From UHGV virus genome UHGV-1686243: 24,442 nucleotides of DNA, one strand, 5' to 3'. A program made the translations under genes and the position numbers. The notes below the pieces were generated by a model. That model had not been told where the DNA came from. It saw only the letters and a program-made list of their open reading frames with translations, and did no database searches. Positions 10,178 to 13,383 of the stretch are shown piece after piece (within the stretch, counting starts at the first letter, position 1; each line of letters begins with the position of its first letter). Source of the DNA: a virus.

Positions 10178-10187
10178 TTTCTAACAT
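10178..10187 (-). promoter_or_regulatory. GTTAGAAA motif copy (minus-strand orientation), adjacent to 7-bp inverted repeat AGTGTAT/ATACACT
   Basis: Plus-strand TTTCTAACAT is the reverse complement of ATGTTAGAAA. It lies in the intergenic region after the protease/scaffold-like gene. Confidence 0.3.
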
Positions 10188-10270
10188 AGTGTATTTATAT
10201 ACACTGTTGATCCTGGTGGATGGGATCGAGTAGGATCGCGGTCACTGCTCCGGTAGCGACTGCCAAAAAA

Positions 10271-10297
10271 GCAAAAGCCGCTGAGAAGCGGCTTTTT
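10271..10297 (+). terminator. intrinsic terminator (bidirectional-looking)
   Basis: GC-rich stem AAAGCCGCT-gaga-AGCGGCTTT is followed by a T5 run and preceded by an A-run. Confidence 0.6.
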
Positions 10298-10300
10298 GGG

Positions 10301-10330
10301 TGTATAAATCCACTGCCATAGATTTATACG
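10301..10330 (+). promoter_or_regulatory. operator-like perfect inverted repeat GTATAAATC-N10-GATTTATAC upstream of the HTH gene
   Basis: 9-bp arms are perfectly complementary, 30 bp before GTG 10360. Related half-sites (GTATTTATA / TATACACT) occur at 10190-10200. Confidence 0.35.
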
Positions 10331-10359
10331 GTAGATAGATTTTTTCACGGAACTATCTG

Positions 10360-11322
10360 GTGAGTATTTTAAATTCAGTTTCAGTAACTTTCAACACTTC
10401 TGAGTATAAAAACAACACTGAATACCACAAAAAAATCAAAGGTCATCAGTTGAGTTTTTTTGCTCGTCATAGCGGTCTTCTTTCCCCTTCACATAGCGCC
10501 ATTATTGCCGAGTTCGCCAACCTGGCAGGGTCTACCGATGAATACATGATCCGTCGCTCATATGCTGATATGTCCGAGATTACAGGACGCAGTATTTCTA
10601 CTGTGCGCCGGGCATTTGCTGAAGCGACGAAGTGCGGAATGCTTGTTAAGCAACATCAGGTAGCGAATAACAATGCCCAGGTGTGTAACGTATATCGGTT
10701 TACGACACAATTTCTCCACTTCATTCATGTAGCAATGGAGATAGGGGGTAAGCAGGGCATCAAATTTGCCAACGCCACAAAACTGGTTAAGCAGTTGATT
10801 TCAAAGGTTCGTTATTTTTTTGAAACTGGGACCCCCCTGTTCAAATTGAACAAGTCCCCCCATGTTCAAAATGAACAGCCAATAGAAAATAAGAGTCACT
10901 CTATAGCCAAAAGAAGAGAAAGATCATGCGCGGTTCAGCCAAAGGCTTCACCAGCAGATAGTTCTCAAACGGATAACGTGGTACTGGATAAAAAACCAGT
11001 AACCAGGGAAGAACATACCAACCACTGCCTGGCGGCGGCAAAAGCGAGAGCTGCAAAGCGTCGTTCAGACGAGGGGCACGCAAAACGGCAGGCTCTGTAT
11101 CGTACCGCTGAAAAGCTGGCAAAAAAATTTGCATGGATACGTAGTGCCGCTACCGCAGTGAATAAGCCTAAACAATCCAGTGCCTTGGATTTCTCAATGG
11201 ATTATTCTGGCTCCCAGGGGTGTGCAACCATTGGTGAAGCCTTTGACCTGATGAAACAGCGTGGCTATCGGTCTGAATTTGACCGTGAGGATTGGTCAAT
11301 CCCGGCTGGCTTTAGGGGATGA
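10360..11322 (+). CDS. winged-helix DNA-binding protein, possible replication initiator (RepL-like?) or early regulator
   Basis: GTG start with weak RBS; the start is uncertain. HTH-like segment ADMSEITGRSISTVRRAFAEATKCGMLVK; basic C-terminal half. Internal palindromic repeats are listed in the findings. Confidence 0.4.
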   Translation: MSILNSVSVTFNTSEYKNNTEYHKKIKGHQLSFFARHSGLLSPSHSAIIAEFANLAGSTDEYMIRRSYADMSEITGRSISTVRRAFAEATKCGMLVKQHQVANNNAQVCNVYRFTTQFLHFIHVAMEIGGKQGIKFANATKLVKQLISKVRYFFETGTPLFKLNKSPHVQNEQPIENKSHSIAKRRERSCAVQPKASPADSSQTDNVVLDKKPVTREEHTNHCLAAAKARAAKRRSDEGHAKRQALYRTAEKLAKKFAWIRSAATAVNKPKQSSALDFSMDYSGSQGCATIGEAFDLMKQRGYRSEFDREDWSIPAGFRG

Positions 11323-11375
11323 CCTGTGCGTCTACAAAACATCCCAATGATCGGAAAATGCTCTCTCAATAATTT

Positions 11376-11386
11376 GTGTTAGAAAA
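11376..11386 (+). promoter_or_regulatory. GTGTTAGAAAA motif copy, preceded by ATGCTCTCTCAATAATTT
   Basis: Exact motif in the intergenic leader upstream of the small ORF / antirepressor operon, followed by TTAATTT. Confidence 0.35.
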
Positions 11387-11736
11387 TTAATTTGCTGTTT
11401 CTAAATCGGAATGTATGATCTGCATCATCGACTGAAATCATCCATTGCTGAAATTTTTAGTTGATCTTCCATGTTTTCAGGCTTATATTCATGTCGTCGT
11501 AGCAAATTCTGCGACCGGGTTTAGCAGCCTGAATACGAATGCGGACAACCGCAGATATCCGATATTGCGGTATTTTTGTGTCCGTAAAACCACGTTACGC
11601 CCGAATTATGGTGGGGCGTGATGGGGAGGCTTCGGCCTGCTGGTTTCATTCGTGCCAGTCTGCTAACCCCGTCACGTCCTGCCACCCGTTTAGCAGCGGG
11701 GCGCAGGTTGTTAAACCTACGAATGAGGCCGTAACT

Positions 11737-11961
11737 ATGGTTAATGCCAATCCTTGCTCGCGCCCGGAATTTATCTGGCGTTTCCACTCCCTGCAAAAAC
11801 ACTGCGATCACTTCGCAATTGCCGCAACTGAAAAAGAAGCCCGTTCTCTGATCCCTGATCAACATGGCGTCCTGACTGGCCGTTTCTCTACTTCATCACA
11901 ACCAAACACTAATCCTTGGTATCGCAATATTACCCATCCCGGAATTGCGGAGGCACACTGA
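11737..11961 (+). CDS. 74-aa protein translationally coupled to the antirepressor gene (Icd-like position)
   Basis: RBS GAGG is 8 nt before ATG 11737. The stop overlaps the Rha-gene start (TGATG). The longer 140-aa frame upstream has no RBS and runs through the hairpin-rich leader. Confidence 0.35.
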   Translation: MVNANPCSRPEFIWRFHSLQKHCDHFAIAATEKEARSLIPDQHGVLTGRFSTSSQPNTNPWYRNITHPGIAEAH

Positions 11962-12668
11962 TGGATATCTGCATTCTTGAAAAGCCATCAATGACCAGCA
12001 TTGAGATCGCGGAGCTGGTGGGAAGTCGTCCAGATAACGTAAAAATATCAATAGAGCGCCTGGCTAAATCTGGAGTTATTCAACTTCCTGCATTGCAGGT
12101 TTTCGAAAAAATCAATAACTTAGGACTACGCCGTAGTGTCGAGGCTTACGTCTTCGAAGGCGAGCAAGGCAAACGAGACAGCATTATTGTCGTTGCGCAG
12201 CTCTCTCCGGAATTCACCGCCCGGCTGGTGGACCGCTGGCGCGAACTGGAAGAACAAGTACGCCAGCCGTTGACCGAAATAGAGATGATCGCCGCAATGG
12301 CTGCAAATGCAGTTCAGCAGCAAAAGCGGCTTCATGCTGTTGAGTCAAAGGTTAGCCAGGTCGCTGAAACCGTCGAGCAAATCAAGAAGGGCAACATGCC
12401 AGATGGCTACATTGGCTACCGCCAGCTGGCTGCGAAATGTGGCCTGACTGAAGCCAAATGCCGCAACCTGGTTAACGCTTTCCGGATTCCCACCGATACG
12501 CATGAGTTTTTAACTCCAGAGGGGGTATTGTCGCGTCGTTCCATCGTGGCCTTATCTCCCTTCATGAATGCTTTTAACCGGATGATGTCGGAGGCAGAAC
12601 ACCGAGGAAAACGCTGGTATCACCCCAAAATGGGGCAATTCCAGGTGATCGGTTGGGGAGGTGAGTGA
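11961..12668 (+). CDS. Rha-family phage regulatory protein (candidate antirepressor)
   Basis: GGAGG is 8 nt before ATG 11961. The N-terminus ...MTSIEIAELVGSRPDNVKISIERLAKSG... matches the Rha signature as recalled (TS..IAE.fGkRHDNVlrdIr.L). Confidence 0.65.
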   Translation: MDICILEKPSMTSIEIAELVGSRPDNVKISIERLAKSGVIQLPALQVFEKINNLGLRRSVEAYVFEGEQGKRDSIIVVAQLSPEFTARLVDRWRELEEQVRQPLTEIEMIAAMAANAVQQQKRLHAVESKVSQVAETVEQIKKGNMPDGYIGYRQLAAKCGLTEAKCRNLVNAFRIPTDTHEFLTPEGVLSRRSIVALSPFMNAFNRMMSEAEHRGKRWYHPKMGQFQVIGWGGE

Positions 12669-12865
12669 TGGACATCATGCAGGCGGTAAAAAAAATCAGG
12701 GAAGGACAGGCTGAAGTGTGCCGCCGTAAAGCATGGAGTATTGATGTATGGGCATGGCCTGATAATTACTCTACTACCGGATGGTTTTGTATTAATGGAC
12801 TCAAGATCCGGGAAGTTTATTTATCGACGGCTGATATAGTCGGTAATGATTGGATCGTGACTTGA
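12668..12865 (+). CDS. DUF2829-like small protein (candidate Tad2-type anti-Thoeris sponge)
   Basis: ATG overlaps the upstream stop, with RBS GGGGAGG. The 65-aa protein has N-terminal ...AVKKIREGQAEVCRRKAW... and C-terminal ...DIVGNDWIVT, which fit the recalled DUF2829 pattern (G..v.RkgW ... DWe.). A paralog-like ORF lies at 21751. Confidence 0.4.
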   Translation: MDIMQAVKKIREGQAEVCRRKAWSIDVWAWPDNYSTTGWFCINGLKIREVYLSTADIVGNDWIVT

Positions 12866-12873
12866 AGCGTGAT

Positions 12874-12898
12874 GCCCCGGCCTGGCCGGGGCTTTTTT
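12874..12898 (+). terminator. intrinsic terminator ending the antirepressor operon
   Basis: GCCCCGG-cctgg-CCGGGGC followed by TTTTTT. It abuts the stop of the convergent minus-strand gene. Confidence 0.65.
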
Positions 12899-13383
12899 CA
12901 TGCCTCATTAGTTGAGGTTGCTGCGTCTCCGACTGGTAACAGAGCGGTATTGCGTGGTTCGCCAGCAGGCCAGCGATAGCCAGACACTCTTGATGTTGGG
13001 AATGCGCGAATATTAACCGCATCCCCCTGGTTCCCACCCAAGACAAGCAGATCGCCATTGGCGCGGCGTCCGACAACGAAGCCTACGTGCCCACCGCCTA
13101 CGCGGGTAAATACAACGATACATCCGTATGCCGGTGTATCTAATTTCTCGCCCCAATCCAGATAGGATTTTGCCGACTCAAATCTTGTTGAGCGGATGCC
13201 TACACGTTCCAGCATTGCACCGACAAATGCTGCGCACCACGGCGTTTCATCGTCTTTAATTCCGCCGCGCTTGATGTCGCGCCAGAACTGAACGATTTCA
13301 GGGTTGTGTTTAGCGCCTTTTATTTCAGTCAAGCCAATGTGCTTACGGGCTTCAATTAGCCAGCGAGGTTCAATGTTTGCCAT
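12898..13383 (-). CDS. CHAP / NlpC-P60-like peptidoglycan hydrolase (TIGR02594-like phage protein)
   Basis: Minus-strand ATG at 13383 with GGGAGA RBS. Cys/His motifs ...ETPWCAAFVGAM... and ...GGGHVGFVVGR... are typical of this phage-associated peptidase family. Confidence 0.6.
   Translation of the reverse strand: MANIEPRWLIEARKHIGLTEIKGAKHNPEIVQFWRDIKRGGIKDDETPWCAAFVGAMLERVGIRSTRFESAKSYLDWGEKLDTPAYGCIVVFTRVGGGHVGFVVGRRANGDLLVLGGNQGDAVNIRAFPTSRVSGYRWPAGEPRNTALLPVGDAATSTNEA

Follow-up and report, generated by a model that had tools for sequence, protein, structure and literature searches.

A probable immI-type antisense RNA immunity operon in a D6-like, P1-related plasmid prophage

Introduction

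The window analysed here is the whole of a 24,442-nucleotide stretch of the virus genome UHGV-1686243. At positions 11323-12668, a leader rich in hairpins precedes a short ORF and the gene of a putative regulator. The question raised by this locus is whether it only resembles the c4-icd-ant region of the phages P1 and P7, as an earlier note made from the sequence alone had proposed, or is related to it by descent, and which functions could then be shared. The region is very probably (probability of about 0.87) an immI-type immunity operon of a D6-like, P1-related plasmid prophage of Escherichia coli, to be read according to the C4-icd-antirepressor model of riboregulation. What is shown for this operon is its homology, its RNA structure, the complementarity and covariation of its boxes and the coupling of its genes.

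Homology and extent of the operon

The proposed P1/P7 logic is borne out as true homology: C4 and c4-a1b1 RNAs are recognised above the Rfam gathering thresholds (GA), and at the DNA level the stretch from the promoter into icd shares 86-88% identity with the annotated c4-icd regions of P1 and P7. Homology of Icd and covariation between the boxes and the antisense RNA among relatives further support this reading. A column-by-column alignment with the P1 annotation fixes the promoter P1c4, a1, b1, c4, a2, b2 and icd in the window (Table 1). Their order and spacing are those of immI of P1 and P7: P1c4/P51b, a1, b1, the 77-nt C4 (a', b'), a2, b2 over the icd Shine-Dalgarno (SD) sequence, and icd overlapping the next gene. 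Apart from the b boxes, the differences lie on either side. Upstream, the window carries repL, whereas P1 and P7 carry sim and the Op51/P51a region; kilA-repL do not follow in the window. Downstream, the effector of P1 and P7 is a pair of KilAC-domain proteins, Ant1/Ant2, whereas that of the window is a 235-aa Roi/Rha-like protein, which is followed, unlike in P1/P7, by a coupled 65-aa ORF.

The whole module shows 93% DNA identity with phage D6 and 99.5% with several E. coli plasmids. D6 (orf19-orf18-orf17) and D6-like plasmid prophages such as pYU39_89 and pGA_Eco1 (NZ_CP093921) have the same gene order: repL - c4 - icd - antirepressor - orf - hydrolase - darB. The literature already credits D6-like plasmids with an ImmI-related region that includes c4, icd and an antirepressor gene (PMC6799933). 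An immI operon of the D6 type is already in the literature and is ordinary within this phage group; only the box allele (P7-type a and b = ACGAAUGA) sets the present copy apart.

The operon extends beyond position 12668, first by the 65-aa ORF, whose start overlaps the stop codon of the antirepressor gene (TGATG) and which is annotated in D6 and in the plasmids, then by a terminator. The latter is composed of GCCCCGGCC-TGG-GGCCGGGGC (12874-12892, strong) followed by TTTTTT, and separates the operon from a convergent CHAP/TIGR02594 hydrolase gene.

Table 1. Features of the operon, with positions in the window
Feature	Positions	Strand	Basis
Sigma-70 promoter, homologue of P1c4 (former P51b)	11461-11489	+	Promoter scan and P1 alignment
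a1b1 leader	11496-11578	+	Rfam c4-a1b1 and isrK matches, box covariation, kept helices
C4 antisense RNA, 77 nt	11610-11686	+	Alignment with P1 misc_RNA annotation; Rfam C4
Downstream mRNA target sites a2 and b2	11690-11728	+	Match P1-annotated a2 and b2 in the alignment
icd, 74 aa, Icd-like host cell-division inhibitor	11737-11961	+	P1 Icd homology, NF033153, phrog_1426
Putative antirepressor, 235 aa, D6 orf18 type	11961-12668	+	phrog_63, HTH_24, D6 similarity
Coupled ORF, 65 aa, D6 orf17 type, no assigned function	12668-12865	+	phrog_7385 (1.5e-46)
Intrinsic terminator closing the operon	12874-12900	+	Terminator scan: 8 G-C pairs and T-run

Promoter and search for operators

The -35 (TTGATC, 11461-66) and -10 (TATATT, 11484-89) hexamers, separated by a 17-nt spacer, align column for column with those of the annotated P1c4 of P1, and transcription would start at about 11496. 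The scan found no second promoter-like site on the + strand in 11200-13000. The leader, given as ~410 bp in the earlier note, has only ~240 nt downstream of the predicted promoter. Its hairpin density is real: 11496-11740 is more structured than its shuffles (z = -5.5).

The P1-type C1 operator (Op51, consensus ATTGCTCTAATAAATTT), which in P1/P7-type operons overlaps an upstream promoter, has no match in the whole window when up to 3 mismatches are allowed; a near-identical plasmid has only three, each at 4 mismatches. Upstream of 11460, the window cannot be aligned with the Op51/P51a segment of P1. When 11323-11470 was searched for a D6-type operator by way of recurring k-mers, all the words that recurred were AT-rich and uninformative.

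C4 RNA and its target boxes

The Rfam C4 model (RF01695) matches 11604-11689 with 71.9 bits (GA 45). The RNA has a 17-bp closing stem, a UUCG hairpin (AGGC-UUCG-GCCU, 11627-11638, already spotted in the earlier note), a second hairpin with b' (UCAUUCGU, 11646-53) in its loop and a single-stranded a' (CUGCUAA, 11660-66), and ends with ACC. The predicted fold of the 77 nt (MFE -45.7 kcal/mol, z = -6.3 versus shuffles) leaves b' looped and a' unpaired. The internal helices keep 100% pairing across 51 sequences.

A repeat noticed from the sequence, GTTTAGCAGC, does occur exactly twice in the window (11519-11528 and 11688-11697); chance alone would give ~0.14 copies, and two copies were reached in 1 of 100 shuffles. 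Its complement CTGCTAAC is present between the copies (11660-11667) as described, with an in-register pairing of 7 nt (CUGCUAA : UUAGCAG), the eighth base being unpaired. These boxes are the a set (a1, a', a2). A second set had been missed: b1 (11535-41), b' (11646-53) and b2 (11719-26). The downstream copy of GTTTAGCAGC was correctly located near the RBS of the small ORF, but the box blocking this RBS would be b2 instead. A small hairpin (11685-11700) carries a2 (UUAGCAG, 11690-96) in its loop, and b2 (ACGAAUGA) overlaps the SD sequence of icd (GAGG, 11725-28).

The complementary pairs are CUGCUAA with UUAGCAG and UCAUUCGU with ACGAAUGA. The cognate duplexes reach -9.3 kcal/mol for a and -11.1 kcal/mol for b, versus about -3 to -5 kcal/mol for non-cognate ones; b' of the window C4 gives -3.2 to -4.3 kcal/mol with b2 of P1, P7 and D6.

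The structure and covariance analysis suggested in the earlier note showed that both box sets covary three ways, with 98-100% pairing and 18 covarying pairs among 51 distinct relatives. Pairings a':a2 and b':b2 are kept at 98.3%, with two-sided changes in 2 and 6 pairs, respectively; pairings a1:a' and b1:b' are kept at 99.9%, with 10 covarying pairs and 180 double-change cells (51 distinct sequences in both cases). Slid controls are paired at 22-54%. In 120 IMG/VR loci, 2 types of a and at least 6 types of b are found, in matched triplets. The allele of the window (P7-type a, b = ACGAAUGA) is common to ~10% of the sampled relatives.

The differences from related phages concentrate in the boxes: 15/24 for D6, 18/26 for P1 and 15/21 for P7 (Fisher p = 3.5e-7 to 1e-9). 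The b box of the window is unlike those of P1, P7 and D6, and its a box equals that of P7; D6 has a P1-type a box and b = ACUUACGA. Since 15 of the 24 leader differences from D6 fall in the six boxes, the window and D6 are predicted to be heteroimmune at immI.

The a1b1 leader and its palindrome

The leader comprises, in order, a hairpin (11496-11515), a small hairpin (11516-11531) presenting a1 (UUAGCAG, 11521-27), b1 (ACGAAUG), a terminator-like hairpin (11548-11571) and AUUUUUG (11572-78). The terminator-like hairpin holds the near-palindrome CCGCAGATATCCGATATTGCGG, which was found at 11549-11570, as claimed previously. Rfam c4-a1b1 (RF03163) matches 11483-11535 above its threshold (52.2 bits, GA 46.7). 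The isrK model (RF01394) aligns over its full length (1-77) with 11496-11577 (46.5 bits, E = 4.6e-9), its terminator stem falling on the palindrome; this score is below the GA of 50, and the U-tract is interrupted (AUUUUU). The leader would work like IsrK and is probably homologous to it, but falls outside the family by the curated cut-off.

In Salmonella, Gifsy-1 isrK - orf45 (STnc1160, C4-like) - anrP shares this architecture: an sRNA in the leader, bearing an a1-like hairpin and a terminator, is followed by a C4-like RNA and by a short ORF translationally coupled to an antirepressor gene. The homologue of the present leader in Gifsy-1, an sRNA produced by termination, base-pairs with the C4-like region and turns on the antirepressor downstream (PMC4825925). 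Gifsy-1 differs by a short ORF placed within the C4-like sequence and by the stress laid on activation by IsrK, whereas for P1-type loci it is laid on repression by C4. A second locus of the near-identical plasmids is exactly of the Gifsy-1 type (isrK 62.7 bits, C4 77.1 bits, icd-like gene).

The palindrome is probably homologous to the IsrK terminator, so that the leader may set free a short a1b1 RNA with an anti-antisense role, possibly an IsrK-like RNA of ~82 nt. The alternative, a serious one whose chances fall somewhat below even, is that the palindrome and an outer stem (11540-11586) merely serve the structure or the processing of the C4 precursor; the leader would then yield no short RNA, and a1/b1 would act only in cis or not at all. 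It is consistent with the isrK score below gathering, with the broken U-tract, with an outer helix (CGGACA:UGUCCG) that can enclose the hairpin, and with the P1 annotation, which labels a1 and b1 only as 'putative' targets. The terminator-like hairpin is modest (dG -8.6 kcal/mol, followed by the interrupted tract UAUUUUUG) and a competing fold is predicted for the 85-nt leader in isolation, so that folding by itself is insufficient to establish a terminator. Against this alternative, the isrK alignment is full-length with the terminator stem on the palindrome, and the leader of P1 itself matches the isrK model (35 bits). Leader helices still pair in divergent relatives through compensatory changes; two of these relatives retain the hairpin in this way, with a clean U7 tract. 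Moreover, the covariation of a1/b1 with C4 is as tight as that of a2/b2, which argues that a1/b1 are under selection to pair.

The 235-aa putative antirepressor

The coupling of the small ORF to this gene through TGATG, proposed from the sequence, is present: the TGA of icd (11959-61) overlaps the start codon (ATG, 11961-63) of the following ORF, which has a GGAGG SD sequence at 11949-53. The encoded protein is a Roi/Rha-like mosaic, with an N-terminal winged-HTH/Roi-Rha-like domain and a C-terminal domain of phrog_6610 type. It is 92% identical to the 'putative anti-repressor' of D6. Elsewhere it is matched over its full length in Stx2_95 (72%) and in a Klebsiella phage (63%), under the names 'DNA-binding protein' or 'antirepressor family protein'.

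The label 'Rha-type antirepressor' given in the earlier note holds in part. It agrees with phrog_63 ('anti-repressor Ant', 5e-48) and with the name given by PGAP, 'Rha family transcriptional regulator'; it does not agree with Phage_pRha (PF09669), which stays below threshold (21.7 bits versus GA 29.9, residues 11-98), nor with a Roi-like N-terminus, nor with the absence in Pfam of the ANT/KilAC domain (PF03374), which scores 106.5 bits in P1 Ant1. Pfam HTH_24 is above its cut-off (30 bits), and an NCBIfam search gave no match. Direct homology with P1 Ant1 is not significant (BLASTP, E = 0.13), the remote ties being phrog_63, phrog_1726 and phrog_8235 ('anti-repressor'). Matches to solved structures in the PDB were spurious repeat proteins and were rejected. 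As the KilAC domain of P1 Ant1 is missing, we only infer the antirepressor role.

The C4 riboregulation could be real while the protein is a Roi-type DNA-binding regulator (HK022/HK97, Stx phages), promoting lytic growth by binding DNA and not by inactivating a C1-like repressor. This is rather unlikely. Residues 11-97, to which the match is confined, are 74-86% identical to annotated Roi proteins of lambdoid phages, and at the DNA level the identity with roi of Stx phages is 90-91%; the winged HTH above the Pfam cut-off, the absent KilAC and the PGAP name point the same way. However, the protein sits exactly where ant1/2 does, behind c4-icd and with the same translational coupling; both protein types alternate behind one c4-icd module among relatives; three phrogs are held in common with P1 Ant1; and the Gifsy-1 protein under a homologous RNA module behaves as an antirepressor.

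icd and competing reading frames

The 74-aa ORF with its own RBS (GAGG), recognised in the earlier note, is confirmed as icd. Its product shares 62% identity with P1 Icd (E = 1e-27) and matches NCBIfam NF033153 (40.4 bits, cut-off 25) and phrog_1426 (1e-38); annotations of D6 and of the plasmids likewise name this gene icd. By analogy with P1, icd would also be a leader cistron, whose translation would be required for expression of the next gene.

The earlier note had named translation of the 140-aa frame 11539-11961 as a single protein as evidence against its own reading; that C4 and the boxes are merely coding sequence is extremely improbable. The frame is open in the window from an ATG at 11539 and in phase with icd, but 97 of 117 relatives close it with an in-frame stop located 11-14 codons before the start of icd. 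P1 and P7 carry TAG at the GCG of the window (11701-03), and D6 has a 1-nt indel in this stretch. Further, the upstream part has no family match whereas the 74-aa part matches Icd families, and substitutions in the upstream part obey the rules of RNA pairing, not those of codons. A minus-strand ORF of 114 aa (11521-11865), intact in only 4 of 110 relatives, was rejected as a gene.

Proposed mechanism

The functional side of the immI model would apply here by homology. Work on P1/P7 and Gifsy-1 leads one to expect that C4 is processed, that translation is blocked, that Rho-mediated polarity operates, that the leader acts as a decoy and that the 235-aa protein works as an antirepressor. From the constitutive promoter, transcription would proceed through the a1b1 leader, c4, a2/b2, icd, the gene of the Roi/Rha-like putative antirepressor and the 65-aa ORF to the terminator. 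The 77-nt C4 would be excised from the operon transcript; in P1, the 5' end of C4 is cut by RNase P. C4 would pair with b2 and a2 of like transcripts, through its loop box b' and its single-stranded a'. Because b2 lies over the SD sequence of icd, icd would not be translated. The antirepressor gene is translationally coupled to icd and, in P1, also transcriptionally polar on it through Rho; the antirepressor would therefore be off, and lysogeny and superinfection immunity would be kept. The upstream a1/b1 fit C4 equally well and would most likely be competitors for C4, an idea that Weinberg (2010) quotes from Citron and Schuster (1990). Immunity specificity would be set by the exact sequences of the boxes.

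The CI RNA of P4 acts by premature transcription termination, not by RBS occlusion. The likeness between P4 immunity and the present operon, compared by description only, is one of arrangement: a processed leader RNA and repeated complementary sites. In P4 (CI RNA, seqA/seqB/seqC), a small RNA from the leader of its own operon pairs with repeated sites up- and downstream (PMC4825925).

A more general reading can be put forward only tentatively. immI of P1/D6-like phage-plasmids would be a two-box barcode (2 a types combined with at least 6-7 b types, matched at three sites per operon), the class of the window would be heteroimmune to P1, P7 and D6, and the module would include a palindrome-released, IsrK-type sponge of C4. 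If true, the module would contain a built-in anti-antisense switch, as shown for Gifsy-1 but not known to have been shown for a P1-type immI. A literature search found no survey of c4 box diversity in phage-plasmids.

Meaning for phage-plasmid immunity

A stretch in which gene callers see an 'Icd-like' gene and a 'Rha family regulator' can be read as a complete antisense RNA immunity operon, in which the RNA genes and boxes can be placed to the base. As the P1/P7 mechanism was solved in about 1990 and the D6-type immI has been described, this adds little new biology. The box alleles differ between elements that are 93% identical and are shuffled across backbones, which suggests that many immI immunity groups exist among P1/D6-like plasmids of E. 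coli. The resemblance of the P1-type leader to IsrK joins two literatures, which Rfam holds as separate families. This link and the diversity of box alleles may be of interest to specialists of phage-plasmids.

Identity of the module

The sequence features listed in the earlier note are confirmed, and the logic proposed there for the region, that of the P1/P7 c4-icd-ant region, is supported. Two Rfam models exceed their gathering scores: C4 antisense RNA, with 71.9 bits over 11604-11689, and the a1b1 target leader, with 52.2 bits over 11483-11535. In megablast, the P1 and P7 c4-icd regions match 11476-11848 with 86-88% identity; identity to phage D6 over the entire module is 93%, and E. coli plasmids reach 99.5%. 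The window overall is a D6-like plasmid prophage (portal, pro, repL, DarB-like gene and others).

The elements read from the single sequence all stand: the GTTTAGCAGC repeat (two copies only; 0.14 expected by chance), CTGCTAAC, the palindrome CCGCAGATATCCGATATTGCGG, the UUCG hairpin, the 74-aa ORF preceded by GAGG, and its TGA overlapping the ATG of the 235-aa ORF. Alignment to the richly annotated P1 record gave the remaining positions and shows that the earlier set held the a boxes but overlooked the b boxes, the ones covering the ribosome-binding site. P1c4/P51b is the sole promoter-like site found by promoter scan. The transcribed leader is more stably folded than its shuffled controls (z = -5.5). 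The C4 RNA fold (-45.7 kcal/mol, z = -6.3) holds b' in a hairpin loop and leaves a' single-stranded, as expected for C4.

Features of the c4-icd-antirepressor operon and its surroundings
Feature	Position	Basis
Inverted repeat AGTGTAT-TTAT-ATACACT	~10188-10206	
Terminator-like hairpin AAAAGCCGCTGAGAAGCGGCTTTTT	~10272-10297	
Inverted repeat TTAGAAA-N13-TTTCTAA	11379-11405	
Promoter P1c4/P51b	-35 11461-66, -10 11484-89	P1 alignment, promoter scan
GTTTAGCAGC copies	11519-11528, 11688-11697	
a1	11521-27	P1 alignment
b1	11535-41	P1 alignment
Palindrome CCGCAGATATCCGATATTGCGG	11549-11570	
C4 RNA	11610-11686	P1 alignment
UUCG hairpin	11627-11638	
b' (within C4)	11646-53	P1 alignment
CTGCTAAC	11660-11667	
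a' (within C4)	11660-66	P1 alignment
a2	11690-96	P1 alignment
b2, overlapping the Shine-Dalgarno	11719-26	P1 alignment
GAGG	11725-28	
icd (74-aa ORF)	11737-11961	P1 alignment
235-aa ORF	11961-12668	
Coupled 65-aa ORF	12668-12865	phrog_7385
Strong terminator, operon end	12874-12892	terminator scan
CHAP/TIGR02594 peptidoglycan hydrolase, 161 aa	12898-13383 (-)	
DarB-like methyltransferase/helicase, 2278 aa	13535-20371	
a1/b1, upstream target boxes in the leader; a'/b', boxes in the C4 RNA; a2/b2, downstream targets before icd.

Translation of 11539-11961 as a single 140-aa protein, the alternative named in the earlier note, is contradicted: 97 of 117 relatives carry an in-frame stop 11-14 codons before icd begins, a stretch in which D6 additionally differs by a 1-nt indel. 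A local GCG instead of TAG at 11701-03 is all that keeps the frame open in the window. A minus-strand 114-aa ORF is intact in just 4 of 110 relatives. Judged by this conservation, neither frame is a gene.

Box specificity among relatives

IMG/VR was scanned with a conserved 25-mer of C4, which gave 120 loci from which the six boxes were extracted. Two a types are found: GA (P1, D6) and AG (P7, window). The b types number at least six, with a seventh in one divergent locus: GUUAGUGA (P1), GAUUGUGA (P7), ACUUACGA (D6), ACGAAUGA (window), GUACAUGA and ACUUGUGA. Boxes almost always occur in matched triplets, and nearly every a-b combination is seen; that of the window is present in ~11-12 of the 120 loci and is thus not unique. 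The triplets are interleaved in the order a1 b1 b' a' a2 b2, and box types are shuffled across two unrelated antirepressor types.

Covariation was analysed in an alignment of 51 distinct sequences. Pairing reaches 99.4% for the C4 fold plus a':a2 and b':b2 (176 double-change cells) and 99.9% for a1:a' plus b1:b' (180 double-change cells), vs 22-54% in slid controls. Predicted duplexes are strong for cognate box pairs only. Within 11496-11736, the 44 box nucleotides hold 15 of the 24 differences between the window and D6, 18 of 26 for P1 and 15 of 21 for P7 (p = 3.5e-7 to 1e-9). From this diversity, immunity specificity seems to be under diversifying selection. No published survey of C4 box diversity was found in the literature.

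The palindrome and an IsrK-like leader

In an E-value search, the full length of the Rfam isrK model is matched by 11496-11577 (46.5 bits vs a gathering score of 50; E = 4.6e-9). The Rho-independent terminator stem of the model aligns to the palindrome and its U-tract to 11572-77. The leader of P1 itself also matches (35 bits). The palindrome hairpin (-8.6 kcal/mol) is about as stable as the genuine isrK terminator at a second locus that this plasmid type carries; in divergent relatives it is retained via compensatory changes and the U7 tract is clean. In Gifsy-1, IsrK is described as a leader RNA ending at a terminator, in an operon of the order isrK - C4-like - antirepressor (PMC4825925), and competition of a1/b1 with a2/b2 for C4 was proposed by Citron and Schuster 1990, as quoted by Weinberg et al. 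2010. On this basis the palindrome is taken to be a leaky terminator, and an a1b1 RNA of ~82 nt may be released there.

Encoded proteins and flanking genes

Icd is 62% identical to P1 Icd and passes NF033153. The 235-aa protein is not an orthologue of P1 Ant1 (BLASTP E = 0.13); the KilAC domain of P1 Ant1 and KilA was not found in it. In Pfam, a winged HTH scores above the cut-off and Phage_pRha below it (21.7 vs 29.9). The heterogeneous antirepressor PHROGs 63, 1726 and 8235 are common to this protein and P1 Ant1. Among the IMG/VR loci, c4-icd is followed by a P1-type Ant (~80 loci) or by the 235-aa type (~20 loci), irrespective of box type. Of the name 'Rha-type antirepressor', the second word is retained, for a putative role suggested by position, coupling and family labels; the first is not borne out by the Pfam score.

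Lambdoid Roi proteins share 74-86% identity with residues 11-97 of the 235-aa protein. The DNA of this N-terminal domain (11990-12252) is 90-91% identical to roi of the Stx-converting lambdoid phages CP-1639 and Stx2a_WGPS6, an identity that the remainder of the gene lacks. The pattern indicates recent mosaic exchange between a phage-plasmid and lambdoid prophages. The operon is flanked, as in D6, by the convergent hydrolase gene and the DarB-like (antirestriction) gene.

Upstream region

P1 has sim, Op51 and P51a where the window has the end of repL (11322), and the two are unrelated upstream of 11460. No P1-type C1 operator was found in the window. The terminator scan predicts no terminator between repL and the c4 promoter, so read-through from repL into the c4 operon is possible. 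The untranscribed stretch between them carries the TTAGAAA-N13-TTTCTAA repeat, a possible regulatory site, in a region conserved in D6 and unrelated to P1 Op51/P51a. The intergenic region 5' of repL (10186-10360) contains the terminator-like hairpin and the perfect AGTGTAT-TTAT-ATACACT repeat, which could be an operator for a D6-type repressor.

Other C4 loci

A second, divergent riboregulator locus lies outside the window on plasmid NZ_CP093921.1 (99.5% identity to the window; L125:10976-11456). Here isrK and C4 score 62.7 and 77.1 bits, and an Icd-like gene is present; the leader, C4 and RBS carry a matched box set particular to this locus (AUUGGAAC and GUCAAAGG). The CDS 'ash family protein' overlapping its C4 RNA gene is probably a mis-call.

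IMGVR_UViG_2565956613_000015 (L044, 4.9 kb) is a chimera, natural or of assembly, joined between the a2 hairpin and b2. Its b1/b' are of window type (ACGAAUG / UCAUUCGU); its b2 and icd are P1/P7-like (GUUAGUGA). Given this mismatch, its C4 would be unable to cover the icd RBS, and a virulent-like, de-repressed configuration is predicted. Another divergent locus (L064:483-752 (-) and downstream) has the same layout of leader, terminator and C4, with co-varying boxes of its own type (UUUAGUCG / CGACUAA). It lacks icd; the regulated gene itself encodes a canonical Rha-type N-terminus (MNALTSTPQIQLKNDVLTTTSLAVAEFFGRRHDNV...).

Relation to published work

The mechanism is textbook P1/P7 biology, and the D6 record already has icd and anti-repressor annotated. 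For D6-like plasmids, PMC6799933 describes a region related to ImmI that holds c4, icd and an antirepressor, together with another c4-icd copy, whose presence was confirmed on the near-identical plasmid. The finding therefore holds and is not new. Only three points go a little further than the literature found: this particular box allele, how much the boxes vary at population level, and the similarity of the P1-type leader to IsrK.
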